A DNA stretch of 32,000 bases from contig NZ_CP042911.1 in assembly GCF_008065095.1 (NCBI RefSeq), positions 7,620,001 through 7,652,000 on the forward strand, read 5' to 3'. The position numbers were made by a program, and so were the translations under genes. The notes under the pieces are model-generated. The model was not told the DNA's origin. It worked only from the letters and a program-made list of their open reading frames with translations, and did no database searches. The stretch comes from Gemmata obscuriglobus. GTDB lineage: Bacteria; Planctomycetota; Planctomycetia; Gemmatales; Gemmataceae. Shown here piece by piece: positions 8,158-31,457 of this stretch (positions are counted from its first letter, which is position 1; every line of letters starts with the position of its first letter).

Positions 8158-9686
8158 GACGCCACCGCCTCTCTGGCGGCCTTGTTCGCCGCCCGCTTCG
8201 CCGCCCGAGACTTCTTCTCCGCGACCCGCACCTCGAGCTCGGTGCGGAGCCGATTGCGGAGCGACAGCGCCAGCTCGGGCAGCACCAGGCCGGGGGTGCC
8301 GTAGATCCCGCACGCCGCCGCGATCTCCTCCCCCTTGCCCTCGGCCCGGTCGCGGACCTCCGGCCACGACAGGTCGAGCTGGTGCATGAGCGCGAGCAGC
8401 TCCGCGACATCGGCCCCCGGAGCGGGCGGCGCGGTGAACCGGCGGCCGAACGCCGGGGCGGGTTTCGGGGCAGGGTCAGTCGTTAGGGTCGTGGGTTTGG
8501 CCACTGCCGTCGTCGAGTTCAGCGGGGCGTTCGGGGTGGCCGCCGTCGTAGTAGGCGTCCTCGTCGCCCCCGTGGTAGGGTCCGAGCGATCCTCACCCTC
8601 CACGTCGTCGGTCGCGGCCGGCAGGGGTGCGGGCGCCGGCACCGGCCCGGGAGGGGGCGGCGGGGGCGGGCTCGCCGGCGGCGGCGGGGGCGGGGCGTCG
8701 GGCTGGTTCCCGAGCCACGCGGCGTACAGCGCGACGTGCTCCGCGGACACGCTGGCGAAGTCCGGCTTCGCCTCGAGGTGGGTGGTGCCGAACGACTTGT
8801 CGATCCAGCTCAGCGCGTTGCGCCACGTCTTGCCCTTGCGGGTCAGCAGCGCCGAGAACTCCTCCTTCGACCACTTCCGGGCGGTCACGCCCCGGGCCTT
8901 GGCCTTGCGGTACTCGGCGTCGAACGCCCGGTACAGCGCCACCGCGTTCGGCGCGCTGGTGACCTCGTCGGGCAGCCCGTACCGGTTCCCGGCCACGATC
9001 GCCGCGGACGGCTGGACCCGCAGGTACCGCTCCTCCTTGTACGCCTTATCGTCCTTGTTCACCTGCACCCGCAGCCCGTAGAACCCGATCACGTCGGCCC
9101 ACTTGTGGGTCAGCCCCCAGAGCCGCTCGTACCCCTCCGGCTTCCACTGCTCGTAGTCCTTGCCGGTCGGGTTGTTGAACTGCTTGGCCTTCGAGTGGTA
9201 CAGCAGCACCACCGCCATCCGGCGCCGCACCCGCACCTGGTCGAGCAGGTTCAGGAAGCCGGCCCAGACCGGGGCGCACCGCCGCTCCCCGCGGCCGAAC
9301 GAGTTGAACTCGCCCCAGTTGCCGAGGAACTCGGTGTCCGTGTCGCACACGTGCTGGGCGAGCAGGTTCTCGGCCCCGTTACCCGTGTCGACCAGCAGCG
9401 TGCGGTAGTCGTGCGGCTCGTTGATGACGGCCCGCACGGCGTCGGTCAGGTCGTCCCACTTCAGGAACCCGGTCGGGTTCTCCTCGGACGACGGGAGGTG
9501 CGCGGTCGGCCCCACCTGGCCCGATTCGATGAGGGTGAGCAGCCCGGTCTCACCGGCGGTCATCAGGAACAGCGGGTTCTCCCACTGCGCGCCGAAGCTG
9601 GTTTTGCCCGCCTTCTCGGGGGCGTACATGACGAACCGGGGCGGCAGGTTCGGCGCGGTCGTGGTGACGGACGAGAGGATACCCAT
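8154..9686 (-). CDS. AAA_24 / Sak4-like RecA-fold ATPase with long Pro-rich C-terminal extension (510 aa)
   Basis: Track ORF 8154..9722. ATG at 9686 is preferred because GAGG lies 7 nt upstream. Walker A-like YAPEKAGKTSF. Poly-Pro linker PPPPPPASPPPPPPPGPVPAPAPLP followed by a further ~170 aa. Confidence 0.75.
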   Translation of the reverse strand: MGILSSVTTTAPNLPPRFVMYAPEKAGKTSFGAQWENPLFLMTAGETGLLTLIESGQVGPTAHLPSSEENPTGFLKWDDLTDAVRAVINEPHDYRTLLVDTGNGAENLLAQHVCDTDTEFLGNWGEFNSFGRGERRCAPVWAGFLNLLDQVRVRRRMAVVLLYHSKAKQFNNPTGKDYEQWKPEGYERLWGLTHKWADVIGFYGLRVQVNKDDKAYKEERYLRVQPSAAIVAGNRYGLPDEVTSAPNAVALYRAFDAEYRKAKARGVTARKWSKEEFSALLTRKGKTWRNALSWIDKSFGTTHLEAKPDFASVSAEHVALYAAWLGNQPDAPPPPPPASPPPPPPPGPVPAPAPLPAATDDVEGEDRSDPTTGATRTPTTTAATPNAPLNSTTAVAKPTTLTTDPAPKPAPAFGRRFTAPPAPGADVAELLALMHQLDLSWPEVRDRAEGKGEEIAAACGIYGTPGLVLPELALSLRNRLRTELEVRVAEKKSRAAKRAANKAAREAVAS

Positions 9687-9726
9687 GACAGGGCCTCGGG
9701 ACGTGGACACGAACGGACACACACAG

Positions 9727-9798
9727 TCGCGGGGGCAGGGATCGAACCTGCGACCTGCGGGTTATGAGCCCGCCGAGCTGCCACTGCTCCACCCCGCG
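9727..9798 (-). tRNA. tRNA-Met (CAT), initiator-like, embedded in the prophage operon
   Basis: Manual cloverleaf: CGCGGGG TG GAGC AGTGGCA GCTC G GCGGG CTCATAA CCCGC AGGTC GCAGG TTCGATC CCTGC CCCCGCG A. It has A11:U24 and three G:C pairs closing the anticodon stem. No CCA; trailer is CTG. Confidence 0.85.
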
Positions 9799-9833
9799 GA
9801 ACCGAGCGGATACGCCCCGCCCGGCCGAACCGG

Positions 9834-10124
9834 TCACGTCCGCGCTTCGATCTGCTTCACCTTGGCGAGCACCAGGTCGAGGCCGGTGGTGTCGCCGGTG
9901 ACCGCGGCCCGGAGCGTCTCGCTCAGCAGGAACGCGCTCACCCGGGCCTGCTTCGCCAGCAGCAGGCACTGCGGGCACCGGCACGCCTCGAGCGCGGCCG
10001 TCCGGGCGTGCATCACGTTCGCGCTGGTGGCGACCAGCGCCAGGAACGCCGGCTCGGCGGTCGAGCGGTTCTGAGGGTGCGGGCTGCTCTCCGGTTGGGG
10101 TGCGTCGGCGTTCGGCATCACCAT
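9834..10124 (-). CDS. hypothetical phage protein (96 aa)
   Basis: Internal ATG of track ORF 9834..10637 (MVMPNADAPQPESS...EACRCPQCLLLAKQ...). The upstream part of that ORF is off-frame-like. Confidence 0.5.
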   Translation of the reverse strand: MVMPNADAPQPESSPHPQNRSTAEPAFLALVATSANVMHARTAALEACRCPQCLLLAKQARVSAFLLSETLRAAVTGDTTGLDLVLAKVKQIEART

Positions 10125-10159
10125 GAGGCTCTCCGTCTGGCGGTTGAAGGGGAACGGGG

Positions 10160-10540
10160 TCAGGCGGACGCGAGCTGCGCGTCGTCCGGGGCCGGGACGA
10201 ACGGGAGGGGTTCGGTCTCGGAGACCAAGTCCCCTTCGGTCGGATCGAACACGTAGCCGCCGCCGCGCAGGAGCGGCACGTACGGGCCGTCGTACCGGGC
10301 CTCGTCGTCCGGCTCCCACACCCGCAGCCGCGACAGGCCCCGCCCCTCGCGGGCCGCCTGCAGCTCCTCGGCCCGGTACCGGCGGCGCTCGTCGGCCGGG
10401 CGGTGGGGCGGCGGGCCGGCGGGCGCGAGGATCTCCGCCCGCTGCTCCGGGGTGCACTGCGAGAGGATCGCGCGCCCCACGTCCACGAGGTCGCCCTCGG
10501 CCAGGGGGTGCGTGTCGGACGAGTCGGTGTACAGTTGCAC
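10160..10540 (-). CDS. hypothetical phage protein (126 aa)
   Basis: Track ORF 10160..10540 (MQLYTDSSDTHPLAEGDLVDVGRAILSQCTPEQRAEIL...). Balanced composition, unlike the overlapping frames. Confidence 0.6.
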   Translation of the reverse strand: MQLYTDSSDTHPLAEGDLVDVGRAILSQCTPEQRAEILAPAGPPPHRPADERRRYRAEELQAAREGRGLSRLRVWEPDDEARYDGPYVPLLRGGGYVFDPTEGDLVSETEPLPFVPAPDDAQLASA

Positions 10541-10753
10541 GAGGCGTGCTCCGGTGAGCGGCCGGTCCGTGCCGCGAAGGTTGAAGAAAGCTCCCGTTCT
10601 GCGCCCCGCAACGCTCCGTGCGGGCGGGGCGCACCAACCACGAGCAGGCAGCGCCGACCCGGCGCTTCGAGGTGCCGCGAATCAGGTGGCGGCATCACCC
10701 TCCCGACGCCCGCCGTCCGTGGCGGGAGCTCCAGCGCCCGGCGGGCGCGTGTC

Positions 10754-10999
10754 TCAGTTCTGGTTCGTTCCCCACAGGTGCTGCTGCACCTGGGCGGCCT
10801 GGGTCTCCAGTTCCTTCAGCCGCGCGTTCTGGTCGCGGAGCTGCCGGTGCGCCCGCTCCAGGTGCGGCACCAGGTCGCTCGCCCGGCGCTCGGCGCGGTG
10901 GTCGGACCACGCGGCCCAGACCCACAGCGCGAGCCGCACGTCGATCAGCGCGCCGCCGGCGATCGCCAGCACCAGCACGGCCACCAGCAGCGTGTTCAC
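10754..10999 (-). CDS. small membrane-anchored coiled-coil protein (81 aa)
   Basis: GTG at 10999 with GGAGG 7 nt upstream. VNTLLVAVLVLAIAGGALIDVRLALWVWAAW is a TM helix, followed by a heptad-like segment LERAHRQLRDQNARLKELETQAAQVQ. Confidence 0.5.
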   Translation of the reverse strand: MNTLLVAVLVLAIAGGALIDVRLALWVWAAWSDHRAERRASDLVPHLERAHRQLRDQNARLKELETQAAQVQQHLWGTNQN

Positions 11000-11223
11000 G
11001 ACCGCGCCTCCTGGACCCGCTCGGCCTCGCGCTGCGCCGTCTGCTCCGTCTCGATCCCGCGCACCGCCACCTGGAGTTCGCCCAGGAGCAGCCGGGCCTC
11101 GTCGAGCGTCAGCCACCCGATCCCCTGCCCGGTCTCCATCCGCGTCAGCCGGACGACCGCGCCCGGGGTGCGACTGGGGCGCCCAGGGGCGCCGCGGTCC
11201 GCTCTCACTCGCCCGAGTGCCAT
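10996..11223 (-). CDS. hypothetical phage protein (75 aa)
   Basis: ATG at 11223 preceded by AAGGAGA 7 nt upstream. MALGRVRADRG...GWLTLDEARLLLGELQVAVRGIETEQ. Its stop overlaps the next GTG (GTGA). Confidence 0.5.
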   Translation of the reverse strand: MALGRVRADRGAPGRPSRTPGAVVRLTRMETGQGIGWLTLDEARLLLGELQVAVRGIETEQTAQREAERVQEARS

Positions 11224-11438
11224 CGCCGCTCTCCTTAGTGGTTCGTGAACGAACCGGGCCGGGGCCGCCGCCTGCGGGTGGAGGGTGCGGCGACCGACGC
11301 CGTGGAGCACCCGCAGTTGGCACCTCGCTCCCAGCTCGGGGCGCGTCCGTTCGCGCACCCCGGCCCGGTGTGTCTGGCCCGCCGGGGGAGTCACGGCCGG
11401 TCGCCCAACGCGGCGGACTCGACCCCGGACGGGTGCTC

Positions 11439-11768
11439 TCAGGGGTTTCGTGGTTTGCGTTTCTTCCGGGCCATGTGTTCGCGGGCGACATCCTCACCCA
11501 GGGCCAGCGCCGCGATCTCGTCCGGCAGGAAGTAGATCCGCTTGTTCGGCCCCCGCTGGCCGCTCGGCCGGATCACCGAACACAGGCCCATCGCCGCGTA
11601 CTTCCGGAGCGTGTTGCGGCAGACGCCCAGGGTCTCGCACGCTTGGCCCGAGGTCAGGCGTTTGGCGGTCGGCGCGGCGGTAGCGCGGGGAGCGGGCGAG
11701 AGCCGCGTGAGTGCGGCCTCGATCCGGTCCAGTCGCTCAATGACGGCATTGAAATCGGGCGAGGACAT
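11439..11768 (-). CDS. excisionase/AlpA-like helix-turn-helix DNA-binding protein
   Basis: Track ORF 11439..11768. LTSGQACETLGVCRNTLRKYAAMGL...RIYFLPDEI fits the HTH_17/excisionase pattern. Confidence 0.65.
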   Translation of the reverse strand: MSSPDFNAVIERLDRIEAALTRLSPAPRATAAPTAKRLTSGQACETLGVCRNTLRKYAAMGLCSVIRPSGQRGPNKRIYFLPDEIAALALGEDVAREHMARKKRKPRNP

Positions 11769-11771
11769 GGG

Positions 11772-12029
11772 TCACGCTCCCCCGCCGCTGTGTGCGATTT
11801 GCTCCGCCTCGTAGGCGGCCTTGATCGGCGCGACTGCGGGAACGCCGCCTCGCTTCCACGCTTCGAGTTCGGCAACTCGCAGGTAGATCGGGGGCCGCTT
11901 CTTGGCCGCGCCGAACTTGCCGCGGGTGAAAACCCCTTCGTGAACGAGGGCACAAAGCTGCTTGTAGTTGATGTCAAACAGCCTCGCCGCCTCGGGCGCC
12001 GGGAGCCAGGAAGCCACATTAGTTGGCAT
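11772..12029 (-). CDS. excisionase-family helix-turn-helix DNA-binding protein
   Basis: Track ORF 11772..12029. WLPAPEAARLFDINYKQLCALVHEGVF...PIYLRVAELEAW. AAGGAGAAGG RBS upstream. First gene of the leftward operon. Confidence 0.65.
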   Translation of the reverse strand: MPTNVASWLPAPEAARLFDINYKQLCALVHEGVFTRGKFGAAKKRPPIYLRVAELEAWKRGGVPAVAPIKAAYEAEQIAHSGGGA

Positions 12030-12060
12030 GCTTGTTACCCCTTCTCCTTTGCCACTAGTA

Positions 12061-12092
12061 GAAAAGTTAACTTTTCACCCCGGTAATGTCAA
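12061..12092 (-). promoter_or_regulatory. candidate leftward early promoter with overlapping 16-bp perfect palindromic operator
   Basis: Minus strand reads TTGACA (12092-12087), a 17-nt spacer, then TAACTT (12069-12064). The perfect palindrome GAAAAGTTAACTTTTC (12061-12076) overlaps the -10. Local GC is about 43%. Confidence 0.4.
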
Positions 12093-12112
12093 GCCATTCT
12101 GGGCGAAGAAAG

Positions 12113-12142
12113 TTGAAGTGTGGATGAGTGACCAATTAGATT
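12113..12142 (+). promoter_or_regulatory. candidate rightward promoter
   Basis: TTGAAG (12113-12118), an 18-nt spacer, then TAGATT (12137-12142), upstream of the GTG at 12161. Confidence 0.25.
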
Positions 12143-12160
12143 TGTTAACGGGGACGTGTC

Positions 12161-12463
12161 GTGCCTGAACTGTTGCTCAGGGAGCCGCCTGTGGCGAAAT
12201 CGCTTCAGCCACCGAAACCGGAAGACGAGAACAGCCCCTTAGCTGACGGTGGCGATGCCGAAGACCCGAAGTACACCGCGCACCTGAAGGTGCCGCTCGA
12301 GTTTATGGAGCGGCTCACCGAAATTGCTCACAAGATCAATAAGCGCCGTCGTCGGCAGGGGAGGAAGAAGCGAGCGCTCGGCTGGTTTGTGGTCACTCAC
12401 CTTGAGGGCTGGATGAACCGGGCTGAGGCGGAGCTTCAGATGGAAGAGGAGGAGGGCTCTTGA
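12161..12463 (+). CDS. putative ribbon-helix-helix (Arc/CopG-like) regulator (100 aa)
   Basis: Track ORF 12161..12463 (GTG start). AHLKVPLEFMERLTEIAHKINK resembles an RHH strand-helix. Divergent from the leftward operon. Confidence 0.45.
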   Translation: MPELLLREPPVAKSLQPPKPEDENSPLADGGDAEDPKYTAHLKVPLEFMERLTEIAHKINKRRRRQGRKKRALGWFVVTHLEGWMNRAEAELQMEEEEGS

Positions 12464-12629
12464 TCTTGATCGCCGTGCGGTAGTCGCACGACTCTTCCTC
12501 GCCCAACTCGCCGCTCCACGCCTCAAAGAGGATGAACCGGCAATCCGGTGAGACCTGCCTCGCGTACCGGGTTACGAATGCCCGGAACTGTTCTTCTGTG
12601 ATGTCCCCGTTGTTGTCCGAAACAGCCAC
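12393..12629 (-). CDS. hypothetical protein (78 aa), convergent with and overlapping the RHH gene
   Basis: GTG at 12629 with AAGGAG 8 nt upstream. VAVSDNNGDITEEQFRAFVTRYARQVSPDCRFILFEAWSGELGEEESCDY. The last ~24 codons lie antisense to 12161..12463 and look non-coding. Confidence 0.35.
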   Translation of the reverse strand: MAVSDNNGDITEEQFRAFVTRYARQVSPDCRFILFEAWSGELGEEESCDYRTAIKIKSPPPLPSEAPPQPGSSSPQGE

Positions 12630-12759
12630 GGTCCCACTCCTTTGGCCGACTCGACACCCGTTCACACGCGAACTGAACTCTAACCAACGATTCGCGCTCT
12701 GCCAACCGCCGTATGTGTTCCAAATGCTTTCGGAACACCCCGCTCAAAGGACACGCCCG

Positions 12760-13680
12760 ATGTTCGGACCGAACGCCAAGCCGCTTGACCTGTGCACCTG
12801 GTTCGTTCCCCACCTTGCGCGATCAATGGCTCTGTCAGGTTGCGACGAGATCGACGAGACCTACACGTGCGGCCCGTTCTCCATCACTTTCAAGGGGCGT
12901 AACGACGACATTGGGGCCGACCCGAGCTTGCCGCGAAAAGTCCGGCGAACATCGGATAAAGTGCAGGACGTGTACCGCGCGTTCGTGGCGATCTGGAACG
13001 ACCCGAACCGCCGGCCGGACCCGATCATGCCGAAGCCCATTCGGACCTGGCTGCTCGCCGAGTACGCTCGCGCAGAGCCGGACAAGACGCAGCGGAAAGA
13101 CGCCCCCCGGAGCAGTATTCAGCACGCGCTAAGCGATCTTCAGGAGCTTGGCATCATTCACCAGCACGGGGACGGCGGTTGGGTCATGGGTCCCCGGCCC
13201 GAGCCGAAACAGGGCACCATTACCGACGACGAGGGTGTTCCGAACGAAAACGGAACACATAGCCCACTTGAACAGGCGGCCACCATCACCCATGCTTCCC
13301 ACGTCGGCGGTGCGGATGTCGTGCCGCCGCGAACGGGAGCGCAGGACATGTTCGGTAAGCTGATCTGGGTGCCGGGCGAGAAGGACGACTTCGAGACGGG
13401 CGGGCTGGTGATCACCGACGACACCGGCACGAGTCACCTGGCCGAAGGGAAGCAAGAGCGGGTGCGGTACTCGGGCCGCACCGGACGGCCCGCGGCGCCC
13501 CTCGCGGTGCGGTGCGAACTGGTCACCGTCGACGACTCGGGGCGGCACAAGGTGGCGGTCGTCAAAATCAAGGGGCCGGAGGGCACCAAACAGATCCGCG
13601 TCCGCGTGCTGGGCGACTGGCAACTCGCGGGCCGCATGAGCGACCGCGAAGAGCCGGCCACACTCGCCGCGAGCAACTGA
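12760..13680 (+). CDS. hypothetical protein with winged-helix-like segment (306 aa), upstream of and overlapping the integrase start
   Basis: Internal ATG of track ORF 12532..13680 (MFGPNAKPLDLCTWF...); an alternative ATG is at 12724. IQHALSDLQELGIIHQHGDGGWVMG looks wHTH-like. Lower GC than its surroundings. Its TGA overlaps the integrase ATG. Confidence 0.6.
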   Translation: MFGPNAKPLDLCTWFVPHLARSMALSGCDEIDETYTCGPFSITFKGRNDDIGADPSLPRKVRRTSDKVQDVYRAFVAIWNDPNRRPDPIMPKPIRTWLLAEYARAEPDKTQRKDAPRSSIQHALSDLQELGIIHQHGDGGWVMGPRPEPKQGTITDDEGVPNENGTHSPLEQAATITHASHVGGADVVPPRTGAQDMFGKLIWVPGEKDDFETGGLVITDDTGTSHLAEGKQERVRYSGRTGRPAAPLAVRCELVTVDDSGRHKVAVVKIKGPEGTKQIRVRVLGDWQLAGRMSDREEPATLAASN

Positions 13681-14951
13681 TGGGGCGCGTTCACAGGAAG
13701 CAGTACACGAAGCCCATCCCCGCCGGGGCCGAGCGGGTCACGGTCAAGGGCGTGCCGTGCGTGCGCTGGCGCGGCAAGTCGAAGCAGTGGCAGGTGGGCG
13801 TCGTGCTGCCGGGCGGCCGGTGCCGCCTCGAATCGGCCAACTGGTACGTCACCTACTTCGACCACACCAAGGGCAAAGAGGTGACCGTTCCGGGATACGC
13901 CGACAAGGCGGCTTCAGAAGCGCTCCTCGCCCAGCTCGTCCGCACCAGCGCCCGCGTCGACGCGGGCCTGTTGCCCCCGGAAGCCGTCCGGCCCCGACTC
14001 TCGCTCACCGAACTCCTGGACCGCTGGCACCGCCACGTGAAGCACGGGGGCGCGTCGGACGAGGGCGCCCGCCGGCAGCGGCGGCACGCCCAGGCCGTGT
14101 GCGACGGGGTGAGCGCGGCCAAGCCGGCCGACCTGACGCCGTCGGCGGTCCTGGAGTGGATCGAGGCGCAGCGGGAGAGCGGCGGCCGATCGGGCGACGG
14201 CATCTCGGTCGGCACCGCCGCGAACTACATCGGCGCGGCCAAGTCCTTCACGCGCTGGTGCTGCGTCGTCGAGAAGTGCGAGCCGGTGGACCACCTGTCC
14301 GGACTCGAAAAGAGCGGCCCCGGGCCGGACGACCGTGTCCACGTCCGCCGATCGCTCTTGCCCGACGACCTGGACAAGCTCCTCGCGGCCGCCCGGGCGA
14401 GCACGGCGGAGGTGTACGGGCTCACCGGACCGGAGCGGCACGCGCTCTACCTCACGGCCTGCTCGACGGGGCTCCGCGCCTCGGAGCTGGCCCGCCTCAA
14501 GCCCGAGCACTTCGATTTGGTCGGCGCCACGGTTACCGTTCATCGGCCCGCGAAGACGAAGAAGCGAGCCACCGACGTGCTGCCGCTCGGCCCGGACGTC
14601 GTCGAGGCGCTCCGCCCGATCCTGGCCGCGGTGGGAAAGGGGACCGTCTGGCCGAACCGCGGCGCGGAGTCCCAGGCGTGGTGGCTGCTCGGCGCGCGGC
14701 TCATCCGCGCCGACCTGGTGGCCGCGGGCATTCCGCCGACCGCCCCGGACGGCCGGGTGTACGACTTCCACTCGCTCCGGGGCCAGTTCGCGACGGATCT
14801 GGACCGCGCTGGCGTCAGTCTGCCCCGCGCGCAAAAGCTGATGCGGCACTCGACGCCGGACCTCACCGCGAAGCACTACCACCGCCCGGAATCGGACGAG
14901 CTGGCCGCGGACGTGGCGAAGCTGCGCCGGGGCAAGCCGGCGGGCTCGTAG
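13680..14951 (+). CDS. int: tyrosine-type site-specific integrase
   Basis: Internal ATG of track ORF 13512..14951 (MGRVHRKQYTKPIP...). C-terminal catalytic signature ...HSLRGQFATDL...LMRHSTPDLTAKHY (HxxR...Y). Adjacent to a tRNA 3' end. Confidence 0.9.
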   Translation: MGRVHRKQYTKPIPAGAERVTVKGVPCVRWRGKSKQWQVGVVLPGGRCRLESANWYVTYFDHTKGKEVTVPGYADKAASEALLAQLVRTSARVDAGLLPPEAVRPRLSLTELLDRWHRHVKHGGASDEGARRQRRHAQAVCDGVSAAKPADLTPSAVLEWIEAQRESGGRSGDGISVGTAANYIGAAKSFTRWCCVVEKCEPVDHLSGLEKSGPGPDDRVHVRRSLLPDDLDKLLAAARASTAEVYGLTGPERHALYLTACSTGLRASELARLKPEHFDLVGATVTVHRPAKTKKRATDVLPLGPDVVEALRPILAAVGKGTVWPNRGAESQAWWLLGARLIRADLVAAGIPPTAPDGRVYDFHSLRGQFATDLDRAGVSLPRAQKLMRHSTPDLTAKHYHRPESDELAADVAKLRRGKPAGS

Positions 14952-15080
14952 CTTGCCGGCAAGCTTGCCGTCCGTTCGTGATTCCCGGTGCGTCTCAGTG
15001 AACAATCGGACATGCAAGCTGAAGGTGCGGAACTATGGTAATCCGCTTGATTTCGGTGCGAATCGCTTGGTTTTCAAGAG

Positions 15081-15152
15081 TGGGTCCGGTGGGAGTCGAA
15101 CCCACTTCCAAGGTGTTATGAGCACCCTGCTCGACCGTTGAGCTTCAGACCC
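15081..15152 (-). tRNA. tRNA-Met (CAT; elongator Met or lysidine-modified Ile2 cannot be distinguished by eye)
   Basis: Manual cloverleaf: GGGTCTG AA GCTC AACGGTC GAGC A GGGTG CTCATAA CACCT TGGAA GTGGG TTCGACT CCCAC CGGACCC A. No CCA; trailer is CTC. The 3' end faces the integrase. Confidence 0.85.
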
Positions 15153-25347: not shown

Positions 25348-26769
25348 TCACACCTCGATCTTCTTCCACTTTCCGCTTGCGAACCGCAGTGCGAAAAAGG
25401 TCCCCCGCAGCCACAGGTCGGCGCACATCGCGACCCACGCGCCCAGCAGGCCCATGTCCGCACCTCGGACCGTCCCGAGCGGGCCGAGATCCACCTGCGG
25501 GGCGGTCATCAGGTACGCCAGCGGAATCCGCACGCCCAAGAACCCGAGCCAACTGAACAGCACCGGCACGCGCGCGTCGCCGGCCCCGCGCAGCGCGGCG
25601 GTAAAAATGATCTGACTCGCCAGAGCCGGCATCGCGCACGCGATCAGCCGCAGCGCCGGTGCGCCGGTGTCGACGATGGGTTGCAGGTCGGCGCCCGGAC
25701 AGAACACCTTGAACATCGGTTCCGCCAGGAGCACGAACAGCACGCCCATGCAGCACATGAGCCCCCCGCCGATCGCGAACGCCACCCACACGCTCCGGGC
25801 GGCGCGGTCCGGGGTGCGGGCGCCCAGGTTCTGCCCCACCAGTGTCATCGCAGCGGTGCCGAACGCCGCCCCGGAGAGGAACCCGAGGGCTTCCCAGCGC
25901 AGCGCGATCCCGTGCGCGGACGCTGCGGTGTCGCCGAGCCGGTTCACGATGCTGAGGAACCACAACTGGCAGAACGCGGCCGACAGGCTGTCGATCGCGG
26001 CCGGAACGCTGACCCACAGCAAACGCCGGATCAGGCCGGTATCGGGAACCAAGTTGGCGAGGTGCAGCTTCAGCCCCGACCGGCCGCGCGAGAGAATGAC
26101 GAGTAGTGTGATGCACCCGATTACGTGACTGAGCCCCGTGCCCAGTGCGATCCCGATGAACCCGAAGCCCCGGAACGGCCCGAACCCGAAGCACAGCCCC
26201 CACGCCAACGGCACGTTCAGCACGGCCACGAGCCCGAGCACCTTCAGCCCGGTGCGCGTGTCCCCGGCGCCCGCGAGGCACGCGGCGCACGCGGACTCGG
26301 TGATTTGGAACGCGAGAAGGGCCGCCAGGGGCGTCAGGAACTCGACGCACACCCGCGCCGCGTCGCCCTCGAGCTTCAGGGCGCGGATCAGGTCCGGCAG
26401 CCCCACCAGTGCCGCGACCGCGCCCACAACGCCGAACACAACGGCCAAAACGATGGACTGGCCGGCGGCCCGGTTGGCGAGTGCGAAGTCCCGCGCCCCA
26501 ACGAAACGGGCCACAAGGGCGGTGCTCCCGACGCTGACCAGAACCGTGTAGCTCGACACGAACCAGTACAGGTATCCGGCCGTGTTCAACGCAGACAGGT
26601 ACCCGACCCGGGCCGCCGGATCGGATACCTGAAATCGTCCCGCGAGAAACTGGTCGGAGAGCTGCACGACGAGGTGCAGGTATTGCTGTGCAAGCGCGGG
26701 CAGAGCGAGGACGAGCACCTGCCGCCCGAGCGGGCGAGATAGCGCGTCCTGCGGAGCCGATGTGTCCAT
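25348..26769 (-). CDS. MATE-family multidrug/toxic-compound efflux transporter
   Basis: Track ORF 25348..26775 (GTG); ATG at 26769 is preferred. About 12 hydrophobic segments. N-terminal LALPALAQQYLHLVVQLSDQFLAG is typical of MatE. Confidence 0.85.
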   Translation of the reverse strand: MDTSAPQDALSRPLGRQVLVLALPALAQQYLHLVVQLSDQFLAGRFQVSDPAARVGYLSALNTAGYLYWFVSSYTVLVSVGSTALVARFVGARDFALANRAAGQSIVLAVVFGVVGAVAALVGLPDLIRALKLEGDAARVCVEFLTPLAALLAFQITESACAACLAGAGDTRTGLKVLGLVAVLNVPLAWGLCFGFGPFRGFGFIGIALGTGLSHVIGCITLLVILSRGRSGLKLHLANLVPDTGLIRRLLWVSVPAAIDSLSAAFCQLWFLSIVNRLGDTAASAHGIALRWEALGFLSGAAFGTAAMTLVGQNLGARTPDRAARSVWVAFAIGGGLMCCMGVLFVLLAEPMFKVFCPGADLQPIVDTGAPALRLIACAMPALASQIIFTAALRGAGDARVPVLFSWLGFLGVRIPLAYLMTAPQVDLGPLGTVRGADMGLLGAWVAMCADLWLRGTFFALRFASGKWKKIEV

Positions 26770-26816
26770 GCCCACATCTTAGTGACCGCGGCGCCGACCG
26801 CCGGTCGCCCCAACCC

Positions 26817-27200
26817 TTACTTCTTGGCGGTCTTCCGGCGGGTCTTGGCGACGGCAGCGGTCGGCGACACCGGCGGCGCCTCGGGCTTGGCCCGAAGCAC
26901 CACCCGGAAGCTCCCGAGCATCAGCACCCCGAGCACGTCGGGCGTGGTTCCCGGGGTGAAGATGTCCGGCCGCAGCCGGTAAATCACCCGGCGCCCGTCC
27001 TTCTCGTCTTCCAGCACGCCCGCCTGCCGCATCACCCCGAGATGGTGCGACATGTTGACCATCTTAATCTTCACTAGTTCTGCAAGGTTCCCGACGTGTT
27101 CGGGGCCTTTGGCCAACTGCCACAGGACACGCAGACGGGTCGGCTCGGCCACGGCGGCGAGCAGCGCGGCCACCTTGCGAGCTTCGGCAAACTCGGTCAT
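26817..27200 (-). CDS. ArsR/SmtB-family transcriptional regulator
   Basis: Track ORF 26817..27218 (GTG); ATG at 27200 is preferred. LLAAVAEPTRLRVLWQLAKGPEHVGNLAELVKIKMVNMSHHLGVMRQAGVLEDEKDGRRVIYRL is the HTH_20 pattern. Confidence 0.85.
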   Translation of the reverse strand: MTEFAEARKVAALLAAVAEPTRLRVLWQLAKGPEHVGNLAELVKIKMVNMSHHLGVMRQAGVLEDEKDGRRVIYRLRPDIFTPGTTPDVLGVLMLGSFRVVLRAKPEAPPVSPTAAVAKTRRKTAKK

Positions 27201-27481
27201 TTCGGCACCAGTGGACACCGCAACCTGCGGCGAGGGCGGGCAATTTGTGGAGTTGAAATAGTATAGATCGAAATGGCGTCATGCCACCGTCCAAACGGAA
27301 ATAGGAATGAATTGAGCCGCTTGGGGGCGGTGCATTTGCGTCGTTCGGACGGATCGGTAATGTGGTACAAGAATGAGGGCCGGCAGGAGTCGCACCCGCA
27401 TGTCCCGAGGTACGAACGCGGTGCCTTTCTGTGTCGTGCCACACTGGCGAATGATCTTGGAGGTAAACATTCGCTCTGTGG

Positions 27482-27498: not shown

Positions 27499-27522
27499 TC
27501 ACTGCTTCATTCGTGCTCACAG

Positions 27523-27595
27523 GCGGCGCGGGGGGAGTCGAACCCCTCACCTGGGCCGTCACAGGGCCACGTGCTACCGCTACACCACATGCCGC
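27523..27595 (-). tRNA. tRNA-His (GTG)
   Basis: G-1 + CGGCATG TG GTGT AGCGGTA GCAC G TGGCC CTGTGAC GGCCC AGGTG AGGGG TTCGACT CCCCC CGCGCCG C. G-1:C73 is the His hallmark. One A5-C68 mismatch. No CCA. Confidence 0.75.
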
Positions 27596-27680
27596 ATCGC
27601 AAGAACTGAAGAATCCTCCGACCGACCGCTCCGGTTCAAAGCCGCGCGCGCGGCGTTCCGATTCGCGATTGTCAGTTGAG

Positions 27681-27754
27681 TGATCCCGGGTGGAATCGAA
27701 CCACCGACCTCCTCCGTGTCAGGGAGGCGCCTTGAACCACTGGGCCACGGGATC
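27681..27754 (-). tRNA. tRNA-Val (GAC)
   Basis: GATCCCG TG GCCC AGTGGTTCA AGGC G CCTCC CTGACAC GGAGG AGGTC GGTGG TTCGATT CCACC CGGGATC A. No CCA. Confidence 0.85.
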
Positions 27755-27847
27755 GACCGTTCGAGCGCGGAACGTAGCGTGCAGGGTTCGGAGCGTTCGC
27801 ATCTTACGTTCCGAACCCCGCGCGATACGTTCCGCGCGACCTTCAGG

Positions 27848-27936
27848 CGGAGGGGGTGGGATTCGAACCCACATACCCGTTTAAGGGCAACCGCTTTAGC
27901 AGAGCGGCCCGGCCAAGCCGTATCCGGCTCCCGTCC
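27848..27936 (-). tRNA. tRNA-Ser (GCT), class II
   Basis: GGACGGG AG CCGG ATACGGCTTGG CCGG G CCGCT CTGCTAA AGCGG, long variable arm TTGCCCTTAAACGGGTAT, then GTGGG TTCGAAT CCCAC CCCCTCC G. C4-C69 mismatch in the acceptor stem. Confidence 0.7.
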
Positions 27937-27984
27937 GTCGGCCCGCTCAAGTGAGCGGGCGGTGATCGGCGCGCGTGCGGCGAG

Positions 27985-28040
27985 TGCGGGGTGCGGAACT
28001 AACCCCAGTCGGCCGGACCTTTGGTAAGCCCGCACCCCGC
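27985..28040 (-). pseudogene. tRNA-like remnant (56 nt) lacking a D arm, CCA anticodon-like loop
   Basis: GCGGGGT ... ACCCCGC A forms a perfect 7-bp acceptor-like helix. Inside it are GGGCT TACCAAA GGTCC and a degenerate T region (GGGGTTAGTTC). Confidence 0.4.
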
Positions 28041-28065
28041 GCCCGCCGCACGCGCACCGATCGAG

Positions 28066-28137
28066 TGGACCCGCCGGGAGTCGAACCCGGGCTGCCGGCA
28101 TGCCATACCGGCGTCATCCCGCCTAGACCACGAGCCC
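28066..28137 (-). tRNA. tRNA-Ala (GGC)
   Basis: GGGCTCG TG GTCT AGGCGGGA TGAC G CCGGT ATGGCAT GCCGG CAGC CCGGG TTCGACT CCCGG CGGGTCC A. The G3:U70 Ala identity pair is present. Confidence 0.8.
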
Positions 28138-28177
28138 ACAGCAACAGGAGTCCGGCCCGGTGCGCCCCGAACTCCAG

Positions 28178-28245
28178 TGGAACCGCGGGGAGTCGAACCC
28201 CGTGGCCGTGCTTGCAAGGCACAGCCCTCGCCCGCGAGCGATCCC
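28178..28245 (-). tRNA. tRNA-Ala (TGC) with shortened D-arm region (68 nt)
   Basis: GGGATCG [CTCGCGGGCGAGGGC] TGTGC CTTGCAA GCACG GCCA CGGGG TTCGACT CCCCG CGGTTCC A. G3:U70 is present. Only 15 nt lie between the acceptor and anticodon stems. Confidence 0.55.
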
Positions 28246-28326
28246 GTTTGACGAGCTTCGAGTTCGGGTTCCGAGTTGAGAGCGGCGCCGATTCGCGCCC
28301 CAACTTGAAACCTGGAACCCGCTGAG

Positions 28327-28408
28327 TGACCTCGGTGGGAGTCGAACCCACACGCCTCGCGGCAGCCGGCTCTCAACCGACTCTGGCTACCAGTTACAGC
28401 ACGAGGTC
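28327..28408 (-). tRNA. tRNA-Leu (GAG), class II
   Basis: GACCTCG TG CTG TAACTGGTAGC CAG A GTCGG TTGAGAG CCGGC TGCCGCGAGGCGT GTGGG TTCGACT CCCAC CGAGGTC A. Confidence 0.85.
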
Positions 28409-28467
28409 ATTCGTCGCGAGCGGTGTCGTGAACGAACCGTCCGTTCACGACGCACCGCCACCAACAG

Positions 28468-28549
28468 TGGCCCAGGAGGGAGTCGAACCCTCACGCCTTA
28501 CGGCACCGGCTTCTGAGACCGGGGTGACTACCAGTTCCACCACCGGGCC
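28468..28549 (-). tRNA. tRNA-Leu (CAG), class II
   Basis: GGCCCGG TG GTG GAACTGGTAGT CAC C CCGGT CTCAGAA GCCGG TGCCGTAAGGCGT GAGGG TTCGACT CCCTC CTGGGCC A. Confidence 0.85.
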
Positions 28550-28575
28550 AACGTTCGCGCCGCTGCGGCGCGGAG

Positions 28576-28644
28576 TCGCGGAGCCTGGGACTCTAACCCA
28601 GCAACCGGGCATATGAAACCCAGCCGAGCGCCTGCCCGCCCGCG
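28576..28644 (-). tRNA. degenerate tRNA-Met-like (CAT): short D region, non-canonical T loop, acceptor bulge; possibly a pseudogene
   Basis: CGCGGGC [GGGCAGGCGCTCGGC] TGGGT TTCATAT GCCCG GTTG CTGGG TTAGAGT CCCAG GC(T)CCGCG A. The T loop lacks the TTCRA consensus. Confidence 0.4.
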
Positions 28645-28662
28645 AAACATCAGCTCGTCCAG

Positions 28663-28730
28663 TTGCGGGCCTCAGAGTCGAACTGAGCAGCCAGGCTTAT
28701 GAGACCCGGCCGAGCTCCGGCCCGCCCGCA
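28663..28730 (-). tRNA. tRNA-Met-like (CAT) with shortened D-arm region (68 nt)
   Basis: TGCGGGC [GGGCCGGAGCTCGGC] CGGGT CTCATAA GCCTG GCTG CTCAG TTCGACT CTGAG GCCCGCA A. Paralogous to 28576-28644. Confidence 0.5.
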
Positions 28731-28745
28731 ATCGTTTCGGTCCAG

Positions 28746-28820
28746 TGGTGACGGTGGGATTCGAACCCACACTGTCCACGTTCTGAGCGTGGCGACTCCT
28801 GCCAGTTGGTCTACATCACC
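28746..28820 (-). tRNA. class I (short variable arm) tRNA with Leu anticodon CAG
   Basis: GGTGATG TA GAC CAACTGGCAGGA GTC G CCACG CTCAGAA CGTGG ACAGT GTGGG TTCGAAT CCCAC CGTCACC A. The cloverleaf is well formed, but the variable region is only 5 nt. Confidence 0.7.
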
Positions 28821-28873
28821 TCATCAAACCTGCGGCGGCTCGACCGCCGCGCCGGCCGCTCTCGCGCCGGCAG

Positions 28874-28946
28874 TGACCCGTGGGGGAATCGAACCCCCGT
28901 TTACAGGTTGAGAACCTGTCGTCCTGAACCGCTAGACGAACGGGCC
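28874..28946 (-). tRNA. tRNA-Glu (CTC)
   Basis: GGCCCGT TC GTCT AGCGGTTCA GGAC G ACAGG TTCTCAA CCTGT AAAC GGGGG TTCGATT CCCCC ACGGGTC A. Confidence 0.85.
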
Positions 28947-28983
28947 GTATATCACACGCTCACATCACAACCGTCTCATCAGG

Positions 28984-29056
28984 CGACTCGTACGGGAGTT
29001 GAACCCGTGTCTCCAGGTTGACAACCTGACATCTTGAACCGTTAGACGAACGAGCC
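28984..29056 (-). tRNA. tRNA-Asp (GTC)
   Basis: GGCTCGT TC GTCT AACGGTTCA AGAT G TCAGG TTGTCAA CCTGG AGAC ACGGG TTCAACT CCCGT ACGAGTC G. G73 discriminator. Confidence 0.8.
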
Positions 29057-29090
29057 GTTAGTTCCCGGTCTGTACCCAACTCCTAACAAG

Positions 29091-29175
29091 TGCCCCGGGT
29101 GGGAATCGAACCCACATTGTCCGTGAGGACGGCTGCTTTACAGGCAGCCTGGCGGCCCACCGCGCGTCCGGAGGC
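29091..29175 (-). tRNA. tRNA-Tyr (GTA), class II, irregular acceptor/D region
   Basis: GCC(T)CCGG ... GCTGC CTGTAAA GCAGC CGTCCTCACGGACAAT GTGGG TTCGATT CCCAC CCGGGGC A. The acceptor pairs perfectly only if one T on the 5' strand is bulged. I could not fold the D arm canonically. Confidence 0.6.
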
Positions 29176-29195
29176 GTAACCGTCGGTCGTCGGAG

Positions 29196-29269
29196 TAGCA
29201 CGGGAGGGATTCGAACCCACACGCACCAAGGTTTGAGCTTGGCCGCACTCCCGGTTGGCGTACCGTGCC
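29196..29269 (-). tRNA. class I (short variable arm) tRNA with Leu anticodon CAA
   Basis: GGCACGG TA CGC CAACCGGGAGT GCG G CCAAG CTCAAAC CTTGG TGCGT GTGGG TTCGAAT CCCTC CCGTGCT A. 5-nt variable region. One U-U mismatch in the T stem. Confidence 0.65.
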
Positions 29270-29364
29270 ACACGATCATTGCGACATTCGGAACACGGAG
29301 TTCGGAATCAAGAACTCGAACACAACACCGATCAACTCACTCCGCTGATACACCCGCTCAGCCA

Positions 29365-29435
29365 AGCCCTCGGCGGGAATCGAACCCGCGCGTCCGTCAT
29401 ACCAAAACGGCAAGCTGCCACTACATCACAAGGGC
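29365..29435 (-). tRNA. tRNA-Thr (GGT)
   Basis: GCCCTTG TG ATGT AGTGGCA GCTT G CCGTT TTGGTAT GACGG ACGC GCGGG TTCGATT CCCGC CGAGGGC T. Mismatch at 11:24 in the D stem. Confidence 0.75.
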
Positions 29436-29491
29436 CGTACATATCACGTCTTCAACTTCATGTTCCGAACCCCTCGTTCCGAATTCGGGAG

Positions 29492-29562
29492 AGCGCCCAG
29501 CGGGAGTCGAACCCGCACATCCGCCATGGCAAGGCGATAGGCTACCGCTACATCATGGGCGC
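29492..29562 (-). tRNA. tRNA-Gly (GCC)
   Basis: GCGCCCA TG ATGT AGCGGTA GCCT A TCGCC TTGCCAT GGCGG ATGT GCGGG TTCGACT CCCGC TGGGCGC T. U73 discriminator. Confidence 0.8.
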
Positions 29563-29585
29563 GTATCAATCACATCACAAACCAG

Positions 29586-29659
29586 TGGAAGCGGTGGGAA
29601 TCGAACCCACGTACACCTGCTTAAGAGGCAGGCCCCTAGCCAACGTCGGACACACTTCC
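29586..29659 (-). tRNA. tRNA-Lys (CTT)
   Basis: GGAAGTG TG TCCG ACGTTGGCT AGGG G CCTGC CTCTTAA GCAGG TGTAC GTGGG TTCGATT CCCAC CGCTTCC A. Confidence 0.85.
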
Positions 29660-29678
29660 GGCTCGCCCTCGCGGGCAG

Positions 29679-29751
29679 CGGTCCACACGGGAGTCGAACC
29701 CGCACCCTTCCGCTCGACAGGCGGCTGCTCTACCAACGGAGCTTCTGGACC
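29679..29751 (-). tRNA. tRNA-Asp (GTC), second and structurally different copy
   Basis: GGTCCAG AA GCTC CGTTGGTA GAGC A GCCGC CTGTCGA GCGGA AGGGT GCGGG TTCGACT CCCGT GTGGACC G. Mismatches at 7:66 and 27:43. Confidence 0.7.
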
Positions 29752-29771
29752 GTACACGTCACTTCGACCAG

Positions 29772-29853
29772 CAGGTGGCGGAGGAATCGAACCCCACAGG
29801 ACGGAGCCGTCGGTTTTGGAGACCGAGTGCGTTCCCAGACGCGTTCACCACCT
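29772..29853 (-). tRNA. Trp-like tRNA (CCA) with 13-14-nt variable region and irregular D arm (82 nt)
   Basis: AGGTGGT(G) AACGCGTCTGGGAACGCAC TCGGT CTCCAAA ACCGA CGGCTCCGTCCTG(T) (T)GGGG TTCGATT CCTC(C) (C)GCCACCT G. A1:U72, G73 and the anticodon arm resemble tRNA-Trp. An alternative fold has an 8-bp acceptor and a 4-bp T stem. Confidence 0.6.
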
Positions 29854-29864
29854 GTAATTCCCAG

Positions 29865-29937
29865 TACCCCGTGCGGGAGTCGAACCCGACCTAAGCGGCT
29901 TGAAAGACCGCCGACCTCACCGGAAGTCGAACGGGGC
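29865..29937 (-). tRNA. tRNA-Glu (TTC)
   Basis: GCCCCGT TC GACT TCCGGTGA GGTC G GCGGT CTTTCAA GCCGC TTAGG TCGGG TTCGACT CCCGC ACGGGGT A. Mismatch at 49:65. Confidence 0.8.
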
Positions 29938-30368
29938 GTTCCCGTGTCGTCCGCCCCCCGGCCACAAAACGAAACCGGCCGGGGGTCGCTTGTACCCCCG
30001 GCCGGCGCGGTCGCCACTCACATGGCTCGCCAGGGGTTCATCCGCTCGTATCGCTCAGACCGCTCAGAGCCGCTTCGACTTCGACTTCAAGACGCGCGGC
30101 CGTATCAAGACCCAGACCTAACGCATAACCCGCTTCCCAACCGGCCGCGAGATACGTCGCCTTCGCGGCGACGGCATCACTCGTCGCTTGAAGTTCGGTG
30201 CTCGCGTGCCAGAGGGTCATGGTTGTATCGTGTGTAAGCTGTGATCCGTTGTTGTTGACCGCGGGGATTGTTGCCCCTCACTCGCGGTGTACGCTAGATA
30301 GACGCGGAACCTATAAGCGGGTTCGCACGAAACCGATTTTATTTTGTCCCCGTGTTGGGAACCGAACG

Positions 30369-31457
30369 GTGAGCGAGTTGGAACGCTGGATGCGGCACGC
30401 CCTGGCGCTGGCCGCCCGGGGCCGCGGGGCCGTCGAGCCGAACCCGATGGTCGGGGCGGTGGTGCTCGACCCGACCGGGAAGCCGGTCGGCGAGGGCTGG
30501 CACCAGAAGTTCGGCGGCCCGCACGCGGAGGTGTTCGCCCTTCAGGCCGCTGGGGCACGTGCCCGCGGCGGAACACTCCTCGTCACCCTTGAGCCGTGCT
30601 GCCACCACGGGAAAACGCCGCCCTGTACCGATGCGGTGCTGCGGGCCGGTGTGGCGCGCGTGGTCGCGGCGATGGCCGACCCCTTCCCGCGCGTCGCCGG
30701 GGGCGGGTTGGCGCTCCTCCGCGCCGCCGGGGTGGACGTTCAAGTCGGGTTGTGCGAAGCGGACGCGCGGGCGCTCAACGCGCCGTACCTGAAGTTGCTG
30801 AGCACCGGGCGCCCGTGGGTCCACGCAAAATGGGCCATGACGCTCGACGGCAAGCTCGCGGCCCGGACCGGCGACTCCAAATGGATCAGCGGTGCCGAGT
30901 CGCGCCGGCGCGTCCACGAGTTGCGCGGGCGGCTCGACGCGATCCTCGTGGGGCGCGGAACGGTCGTCGCGGACGACCCGCTCCTAACGGCCCGGCCCGC
31001 GGGCGTGCGCGTGCCCGCGCGGGTGGTGCTGACCGCGTCCGGAGAGCTACCGGCGGCGTGTCAGTTACGCGCCACCGCGCGCGAGGCGCCCGTCCTCGTG
31101 TACACCGCCAACCCCGGAAAGCTCGGCGGGTGGGCCGCCGACGGCGCGGAGGTCGTCGGCTTCGGTGAGCTGACCCTCGACGCCGTTCTCGCGGATCTGG
31201 GCCGGCGGCGCTTCACAAACGTGCTGCTGGAGGGCGGCGCGGGGCTATTGGGGGCGGCTCGTGATGCGGACGCGATCGACGAGTTTCACGTGTTTATCGC
31301 GCCAAAGGTGGTCGGCGGAAGTGCGGCGCTGACGCCCGTCGGCGGTACGGGCGCCGCGCGGATGGCGGAGGCGCTGACGCTCGAAGGGGTGACGTTCGAG
31401 CCGTCCGGCGCGGACGTGTACGTCCACGGGTTCGCGCCGGGTCGGGTCGTTGTGTAA
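30369..31457 (+). CDS. ribD: bifunctional riboflavin biosynthesis protein RibD (pyrimidine deaminase / uracil reductase)
   Basis: Track ORF 30198..31457. GTG at 30369 is preferred (VSELERWMRHALALAARG...); an alternative ATG is at 30390. NPMVGAVV, HAEVFAL and TLEPCCHHGKTPPC form the CMP/dCMP deaminase zinc site. The C-terminal part is an RibD_C reductase region. Confidence 0.9.
   Translation: MSELERWMRHALALAARGRGAVEPNPMVGAVVLDPTGKPVGEGWHQKFGGPHAEVFALQAAGARARGGTLLVTLEPCCHHGKTPPCTDAVLRAGVARVVAAMADPFPRVAGGGLALLRAAGVDVQVGLCEADARALNAPYLKLLSTGRPWVHAKWAMTLDGKLAARTGDSKWISGAESRRRVHELRGRLDAILVGRGTVVADDPLLTARPAGVRVPARVVLTASGELPAACQLRATAREAPVLVYTANPGKLGGWAADGAEVVGFGELTLDAVLADLGRRRFTNVLLEGGAGLLGAARDADAIDEFHVFIAPKVVGGSAALTPVGGTGAARMAEALTLEGVTFEPSGADVYVHGFAPGRVVV

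Follow-up and report, generated by a model that had tools for sequence, protein, structure and literature searches.

The gene at positions 29196 to 29269, on the minus strand of a stretch of the Gemmata obscuriglobus chromosome (32,000 nucleotides, nt, of contig NZ_CP042911.1, 69.6% GC, hereafter the window), is a bona fide and correctly called tRNA-Leu(CAA) gene that should not be flagged as a pseudogene. It encodes a leucine transfer RNA (tRNA) of class I architecture, with a short variable loop in place of the long arm, and judged by its sequence it is probably a functional tRNA that decodes UUG and is charged by the host leucyl-tRNA synthetase (LeuRS). In the textbook view bacterial tRNA-Leu is class II, and to our knowledge the tRNA-Leu(CAA) of Streptomyces coelicolor has so far been the only characterised bacterial exception. 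The Gemmata gene would extend this exception to a second phylum, the Planctomycetota, where a syntenic chromosomal array appears to have long retained short-arm tRNA-Leu genes with as many as three different anticodons.

Structure of the short tRNA-Leu(CAA) gene

ARAGORN called the gene as tRNA-Leu(caa) at 29195-29269 on the minus strand. The Rfam model RF00005 matched it on the minus strand only, with a score of 43.6 bits (E = 4e-7 over 5 kb); the gathering score of this model is 29 bits, and the match spans model positions 1-71, that is, the full model. Together with a parse by hand, covariation among orthologs and a leucine core signature (see below), these calls define the following features, with the letters given as RNA from 29269 to 29196.

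29196..29269, minus strand: tRNA-Leu(CAA) gene, class I (type I), 74 nt including A73
29269-29263 / 29203-29197, minus strand: acceptor stem, GGCACGG/CCGUGCU, the 5' strand followed by UA
29260-29244, minus strand: D arm, CGC CAACCGGGAGU GCG, followed by G
29242-29226, minus strand: anticodon arm, CCAAG CUCAAAC CUUGG, with CAA at 29235-29233
29225-29221, minus strand: variable loop UGCGU, 5 nt
29220-29204, minus strand: T arm, GUGGG UUCGAAU CCCUC, with U50·U64 at 29219/29205
29196, minus strand: discriminator A73
28746..28820, minus strand: sibling class I tRNA-Leu(CAG), variable loop ACAGU, A73, Leu-type D loop CAACUGGCAGGA (ARAGORN, Rfam)

The D stem has 3 bp (CGC/GCG), with C13 and U22 unpaired, and the D loop is an 11-nt string. 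The acceptor stem begins with a G1·U72 wobble pair and CCA is not encoded, while the elbow is fully canonical (G18G19 and UUCGAAU). The long variable arm of a canonical class II tRNA-Leu, of more than 10 nt and folded as a stem-loop, is absent, its place being taken by the 5-nt loop. An earlier note on this DNA, made from the letters, had listed A73, the 3-bp D stem, the D loop, the variable region TGCGT, the anticodon CAA and one U-U mismatch in the T stem, and all of these hold in the parse. So does its statement that the sibling tRNA-Leu(CAG), 450 bp away, is built in the same way.

Conservation in the Gemmataceae

The gene is part of a dense tRNA array bordered by three protein-coding genes, as follows.

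27522..29937, minus strand (all genes): chromosomal tRNA array, 19 genes in 2.4 kb (2416 bp, 7.9 genes per kb), none with an encoded CCA (ARAGORN)
30198..31457, plus strand: ribD (deaminase and RibD_C), conserved upstream flank of the array and our synteny anchor (Pfam, tblastn)
26817-27218, minus strand: ArsR-type helix-turn-helix regulator, flank on the other side (Pfam)
25348-26775, minus strand: MatE transporter, flank on the other side (Pfam)

The synteny sample consisted of 80 ribD loci on which ARAGORN was run, with the flanks identified by tblastn. The array was found directly upstream of ribD, in the same orientation and with about the same gene order, in at least 17 species-level Gemmataceae genomes. 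Beyond it, both ArsR and MatE were detected in seven genomes (L126, L128, L129, L131, L132, L133 and L135), and ArsR without MatE in two (L130 and L142). At least 15 other Gemmataceae or Gemmatales had no tRNAs at the ribD site. Since the ribD and arsR/matE flanks are shared, the array locus has evidently been inherited vertically within a clade centred on Gemmata and Frigoriglobus. Megablast against cultured phages and blastn against plasmids gave no match to the array, suggesting that it is not a recent insert from a known element. At locus L167 (JANWVV010000036.1, 5229-6001), ribD is directly preceded by an arsR-like gene and the two have no tRNAs between them, which makes this a possible empty site.

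Within the array, the slot flanked by Tyr(GUA) and Thr(GGU) holds a Leu(CAA) gene of 74-77 nt in the window and in 14 related genomes, and a 75-nt Leu(UAA) in L134. RibD is 59-78% identical to that of the window in 14 of the 15 genomes with the short Leu(CAA). We aligned the 15 orthologous sequences and compared the alignment with 500 shuffles and with slid controls. Of its stem cells 97.7% were paired, against 30-46% in the slid controls, and five pairs were changed on both sides, where the shuffles gave 0.7 on average; none of the 500 shuffles reached any of the measures. Compensatory changes include A29:U41 to G:C, C10:G25 to A:U and U50:A64 to C:G. The acceptor stem (GGCACGG/CCGUGCY) is essentially invariant, A73 is present in 15 of 15 sequences, and U8 and A14 do not vary. 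The mismatch U50·U64 is common to five distinct sequences from the Gemmata/Frigoriglobus subclade, the other orthologs having U:A or C:G at this pair, and is a derived state. We take this pattern as the mark of purifying selection on a working cloverleaf, not of decay, and judge that the conservation and compensatory changes in 15 genomes place the feature far beyond chance. The earlier proposal that the gene represents a maintained subfamily and not a random deletion is borne out by these stems and by the occupation of the same slot in at least 15 Gemmataceae genomes.

The sibling short Leu(CAG) is kept as well, at 75-76 nt and after a 69-nt Met gene, in 14 related arrays. The array of the window holds two further leucine genes:

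28467..28549, minus strand: class II tRNA-Leu(CAG), canonical, with a 13-nt variable arm (ARAGORN, parse)
28326..28408, minus strand: class II tRNA-Leu(GAG), with a 13-nt variable region (ARAGORN, parse)

The Leu(GAG) slot is filled by a class I gene of 74-76 nt in 12 related genomes (among L126-L136, L147 and L168), and by a class II gene of 83-84 nt in the window, Gemmata algarum, L128 and L135. The genes of the two classes share positions 1-3 (GAC), positions 70-72 (GUC), A73 and the T arm, which suggests that one architecture has replaced the other at this locus by switching or gene conversion.

A leucine-type core

Standard position numbers were assigned to 1,888 tRNAs from all the loci collected; the short-arm Leu set comprised 36 unique genes from Gemmataceae and 190 unique genes from phages. 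A73 was present in 35 of the 36 Gemmataceae and 172 of the 190 phage genes, A15:U48 in 35 and 156, and U8:A14 in 35 and 168, respectively. In the D arm of these genes 13·22 is unpaired, 2 nt separate position 15 from G18G19, and the 3' half of the loop is long; the variable loop has 5 nt in 33 of the 36 Gemmataceae genes. Long-arm Leu genes have the same core features. Most other class I isotypes have a paired 13:22 and G15:C48.

These features were combined into a signature that reads A14A15, 1-3 nt, GG, N, A, G or U, an optional G, A or U at position 22 unpaired with 13, A73 and U48. The signature was defined after the family had been viewed, and only its specificity (none of 999, and Leu anticodons only) is counted here as evidence. 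It was found in 151 of the 226 class I Leu genes (123 of 190 from phages and 28 of 36 from Gemmataceae), all with Leu anticodons, and in 0 of 999 non-Leu class I tRNAs. Among long-arm tRNAs it was carried by 37 of 73 Leu, 0 of 104 Ser and 0 of 45 Tyr genes. Forty of the phage carriers have UAG, GAG, UAA or AAG, anticodons that lay outside the search pattern by which the phage genes were collected. The short Leu(CAA) of the window passes the signature, with A73, U8:A14, A15:U48, the 3-bp D stem, 13·22 unpaired and the G18G19 register. As the signature is present in this gene and is confined to Leu anticodons, the body of the short Leu(CAA) is evidently that of a tRNA-Leu minus the arm, coupled to Leu anticodons only. 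The same counts support the Leu-like D loop and core that had been noticed from the letters. It had also been asked whether structure might place the gene with a different isotype; we examined this, and the core is that of Leu and not of another isotype. In Escherichia coli, leucine identity consists of A73 and the tertiary core (U8-A14, A15-U48, G18-U55 and G19-C56), and in Aquifex deletion of the arm chiefly lowers affinity (PMC2377443).

The short-arm family in phages

A pattern that required the Leu D loop together with the T arm, CAA or CAG as anticodon and a variable region of short length matched at least 120 phage contigs in IMG/VR. Judged from these loci, phage tRNA clusters very often contain members of the family, and all six Leu anticodons are represented among them. 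Over the 120 IMG/VR loci, two phage-record loci (L121-L122) and the window, the numbers of short and long Leu genes were 49 and 6 for CAG, 103 and 2 for CAA, 27 and 19 for GAG, 25 and 23 for UAA, 29 and 27 for UAG, and 3 and 5 for AAG. In total, 236 short and 82 long genes were counted for Leu, 2 and 124 for Ser, and 2 and 37 for Tyr, which fits the view that the arm is dispensable only for Leu. Among GenBank records, Mycobacterium phage Mangeria (genes 85-87) carries Leu(cag) of 75 nt, Leu(gag) of 75 nt and Leu(caa) of 74 nt, and phage Wildcat (genes 113-114) carries two tRNA-Leu of 74 and 73 nt. Such phage genes are annotated; in the open literature searched we found no description of them as a class.

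Twenty-eight of the 40 nearest sequence neighbours of the short Leu(CAA) are short Leu genes, and the sibling short Leu(CAG) is 81-87% identical to phage short Leu genes. The exact acceptor stem of the short Leu(CAA), GGCACGG/CCGUGCU, recurs in two phage contigs, L078 (IMGVR_UViG_3300037264_002724, 44% GC) and L085 (IMGVR_UViG_3300014202_000478), and L078 also has its T arm, including U50·U64, a mismatch seen in 10 of the 190 phage short Leu genes. The Leu(CAG) gene of L078 combines the acceptor and T arms of the short Leu(CAA) with the D, anticodon and variable parts found in the short Leu(CAG) of the window. This mosaic and the shared stems suggest that the two genes of the window are paralogs drawn from an old shared pool; they are evidently members of one old and widespread family and do not represent independent losses of the arm. 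The earlier note had counted them as two independent arm-less genes, a point that has to be given up.

Several phage clusters consist almost entirely of Leu, Ser and Tyr genes, with short and long Leu mixed (12 of 12 genes in L085, 13 of 14 in L078, 7 of 8 in L118 and 12 of 14 in L039). This composition suggests a pressure specifically on the long-armed isotypes.

Comparison with known systems

The sole tRNA-Leu(CAA) of S. coelicolor is a type I tRNA with the variable loop ACAGC (Fan, Huang, Ji & Wang, Nucleic Acids Res 2019; PMC6614811). The single LeuRS of that organism, ScoLeuRS, leucylates it at about half the efficiency of type II tRNA-Leu, the reaction requires U8:A14 and a loop of exactly 5 nt, and an attempt to knock out the gene failed (PMC6614811). 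A short-arm tRNA-Leu is thus not a new type, since this one has already been characterised biochemically. The Gemmata gene has the sequence traits of a type I tRNA-Leu, namely the 5-nt loop, a Leu anticodon and U8:A14, and to judge from the published description, with which it was compared in place of an alignment, it matches the S. coelicolor tRNA on every sequence criterion testable here. Both are bacterial chromosomal tRNAs with the anticodon CAA, a 5-nt loop (ACAGC there; UGCGU here, and ACAGU in the sibling), U8:A14 and A73. Both genomes are high in GC, have class II tRNA-Leu isoacceptors alongside (here Leu(CAG) and Leu(GAG) in the same array) and use UUG as a minor codon. They differ in phylum (Actinomycetota there, Planctomycetota here), in position 48 (C48 there, U48 here) and in setting, as the Gemmata gene stands in a 19-gene array with a second short Leu, and in relatives a third, of other anticodons. 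Moreover, leucylation, LeuRS competence and essentiality have been shown for S. coelicolor, whereas for the Gemmata gene leucylation by the host LeuRS is a prediction.

The phage genes (Mangeria, Wildcat and the IMG/VR contigs; 73-77 nt) resemble the short Leu(CAA) in architecture, D loop (C13, then AAYUGGYAG, then A22), A73 and U48, with 72-78% overall identity. They differ in lying in phage genomes, many of low GC, and in having six Leu anticodons, whereas the Gemmata gene is chromosomal and vertical with its flanks. The type I tRNA-Leu of animal mitochondria also has a short variable loop; A73 and A14 are its main identity elements, and a LeuRS of bacterial type charges it although the extra arm is missing (PMC9976931). 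Its core is relaxed and rich in A and U, in contrast to the canonical elbow (G18G19 and UUCGAAU) of the Gemmata gene, and ScoLeuRS does not charge human mitochondrial tRNA (PMC6614811).

The array itself resembles the tRNA array units described by Tran et al. (2016; PMC4758250) and in mycobacteria (PMC12803027) in being a dense one-strand cluster of about 20 genes with redundant isoacceptors and structural variants. Such a unit is defined by at least 20 tRNA genes at a density of at least 2 genes per kb, and arrays have been recorded in a few Planctomycetes (PMC4758250). The array of the window, at 7.9 genes per kb, is well within this density and with 19 genes is one short of 20; the orthologous arrays in L128, L130, L132 and L135 have 20-24 genes. 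Array units are usually treated as mobile or recently inserted, whereas the Gemmata array is syntenic between arsR-matE and ribD across genera.

How the short tRNA-Leu(CAA) may work

We favour a simple course of events, in which the short Leu(CAA) would be transcribed together with the conserved chromosomal array, the transcript would be processed and CCA added post-transcriptionally, the host LeuRS, an enzyme that does not read the anticodon, would charge the tRNA with leucine, and the charged tRNA would then decode UUG on the ribosome. In the open reading frames of the window, CUG accounts for 0.50 of Leu codons, CUC for 0.40 and UUG, the third most used, for 0.05; the Leu anticodons of the array (CAG twice, GAG and CAA) match this usage.

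Several observations weigh against this reading. The type I tRNA-Leu of S. coelicolor is not a substrate for the LeuRS of E. coli or for one LeuRS from Streptomyces, and competence for it maps to the leucine-specific domain of LeuRS and varies within Streptomyces (PMC6614811). A naive-Bayes isotype classifier, built on 60 fixed positions with the anticodon and the variable region excluded, recovers most isotypes; when it was given no short-Leu class, its assignments of the CAA orthologs were weak and scattered (Tyr, Glu and Ile at about 30 bits), and long-arm Leu was the most frequent assignment for the phage short Leu genes. We replaced the classifier by the explicit test of the Leu-core signature. 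The minimum free energy structure of the bare, unconstrained transcript is not the cloverleaf (-27.7 versus -22.7 kcal/mol, z = -0.7), and the same is true of several orthologs; thermodynamic folding is uninformative for unmodified, GC-rich tRNAs and was left out of the argument. The T stem has the mismatch U50·U64. Finally, Gemmataceae genomes have 83-88 tRNA genes each and at least 15 relatives do without the array, so that the short Leu(CAA) may be a supernumerary copy and not the sole reader of UUG.

Alternative explanations

A tRNA that is real and chargeable might also have been selected for another role, as a back-up or in counter-defence, with the array as a domesticated, phage-derived second tRNA set in which arm-less Leu genes persist because toxins or nucleases that identify a class II tRNA by its long arm act on them poorly. 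We consider this unlikely. In its favour, the family is overwhelmingly phage-borne, the phage clusters L085, L078, L118 and L039 hold nearly nothing except Leu, Ser and Tyr genes, MenT3 and AbiEii are reported to prefer long-armed tRNAs, and tRNA array units have been discussed as putative anti-defence systems (PMC12803027). The Gemmataceae array contains several other non-canonical tRNAs, the genomes are rich in tRNA genes, the array is missing from its site in many relatives, and L167 resembles an empty site. Spelled out, the proposal would be that arm-less class I Leu tRNAs are an escape form evading nucleotidyltransferases of the MenT3 or AbiEii kind and that the array is a domesticated phage island, to which we give a rather small chance. 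LeuRS alone among the three synthetases for class II tRNAs would be able to dispense with the long arm, so that phages could have dropped it only from tRNA-Leu; the array, with its long-armed Trp, its 69-nt Met and Ala and its Glu-bodied Asp, would then be a toxin-resistant second translation set. However, no system that targets class II tRNAs is in evidence in Gemmata, the anticodons of the array match the preferred codons of the host, as for ordinary translation, and the S. coelicolor precedent is a housekeeping and apparently essential tRNA. Long vertical retention with both flanks needs no defence role.

That the gene combines a Leu anticodon with another aminoacyl identity, as a mistranslating or recoding tRNA whose anticodon has shifted from a class I isotype (for example Trp, CCA to CAA), seems to us very improbable. 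The class I architecture would agree with it, CAA is one substitution away from CCA, and the classifier without a short-Leu class put the CAA orthologs nearest to Tyr, Glu or Ile; mistranslating tRNAs do exist in other bacteria. But the Leu signature, absent with non-Leu anticodons from all 999 class I tRNAs, is shared with class II Leu only, and most of the nearest neighbours (28 of 40) are short Leu genes. The gene has no G3:U70, as for Ala identity, and no long arm, as for Ser identity, and CAA would be rejected by most other synthetases, which read the anticodon (PMC9976931). An ancestry from Trp was rejected because the gene has A73, whereas the Trp genes of the same arrays have G73, and because 13·22 is unpaired. 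A decaying tRNA-Leu pseudogene, its variable arm deleted and the gene out of use, is strongly disfavoured. The U·U mismatch, the G1·U72 wobble and the predicted fold could be read in this way, and tRNA arrays often hold pseudogenes (PMC4758250); the slot has, however, been kept in 15 genomes in spite of the divergence of RibD, compensatory changes occur among the orthologs, whose acceptor stem hardly varies, hundreds of phage genes have the same architecture, and U50·U64 itself recurs in phage members. The last alternative, that the true gene is a plus-strand tRNA-Gln(UUG) and the Leu call its mirror image, can be regarded as refuted. CAA is the reverse complement of UUG and the array has no Gln gene, but no plus-strand tRNA match appeared even at E <= 10, the Rfam and ARAGORN matches are confined to the minus strand, as are all 19 genes of the array, and UUCGAAU and G18G19 fall in the correct loops on that strand only. 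The absence of tRNA-Gln from the array, noticed earlier and put down to probable coincidence, was confirmed by ARAGORN, and coincidence it appears to be: Phe, Ile, Pro, Cys, Asn and Arg are absent too, and phage Wildcat carries its two short Leu genes together with a tRNA-Gln.

The practical consequence for the window alone is small, and the novelty is modest given the Streptomyces precedent and the routine annotation of the phage genes. The family nevertheless offers a ready comparative data set for asking how LeuRS recognises an arm-less tRNA and why phages often carry the arm-less form. Both the wide spread of the family among phages and the conserved array of the Gemmataceae, with its non-canonical tRNAs, merit a study of their own.

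The array and its surroundings

The order of the genes in the array is Glu-Trp-Asp-Lys-Gly-Thr-Leu(caa)-Tyr-Asp-Glu-Leu(cag, short)-Met-Leu(cag)-Leu(gag)-Ala-Ala-Ser-Val-His. A scan for sigma-70 promoters and terminators gave no convincing promoter for it. The RibD closest to that of the window is from G. algarum JC673 (96% identical), followed by those of Frigoriglobus, Fimbriiglobus and other Gemmataceae. Further genes in the window encode a DUF7133/cytochrome c/HEAT protein and TPR, WD40, RNase HII-like and HIT proteins.

Other members of the array are unusual as well. The tRNA-Trp(CCA) at 29771-29853 (minus strand) has 83 nt, a 13-nt variable region, A1:U72 and G73; as a class I isotype with a long variable region, it is the converse of the short Leu. 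Long Trp genes of 82-84 nt are kept in at least 10 Gemmataceae arrays, and a few arrays also hold a normal Trp of 71-74 nt. The Met(CAU) at 28662-28730 and the Ala(UGC) at 28177-28245 (both minus strand) have 69 nt each and a D loop of about 5 nt without G18G19; the 69-nt Met occurs in nearly every related array scanned and directly precedes the short Leu(CAG) where that gene exists. The Asp(GUC) at 28982-29056 (minus strand) is almost identical in its 5' half to the adjoining Glu(CUC) at 28873-28946 (minus strand) and has a Glu-type body, an Asp anticodon and G73; an Asp(GUC) of ordinary appearance is found at 29678-29751.

Between ribD and the first gene of the array, upstream of the array on its own strand, a 13-bp GC-rich hairpin is followed by a T-rich run (29974-30006, minus strand). 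Inside the array, between Ser and Ala(GGC), lies a hairpin-like stretch of about 100 nt (27963-28062). This stretch, possibly a long inverted repeat or what remains of a tRNA, is matched weakly on both strands by microRNA-precursor models, well below their thresholds. Elsewhere in the window, an integrated mobile element extends over 765-15152. It has a tyrosine integrase gene at 13512-14951 (plus strand) beside a tRNA-Met at 15080-15152 (minus strand), and also holds Prim-Pol/DUF3987, ParB-like, AAA_24 and phage-metallopeptidase genes and a tRNA-Met at 9726-9798.

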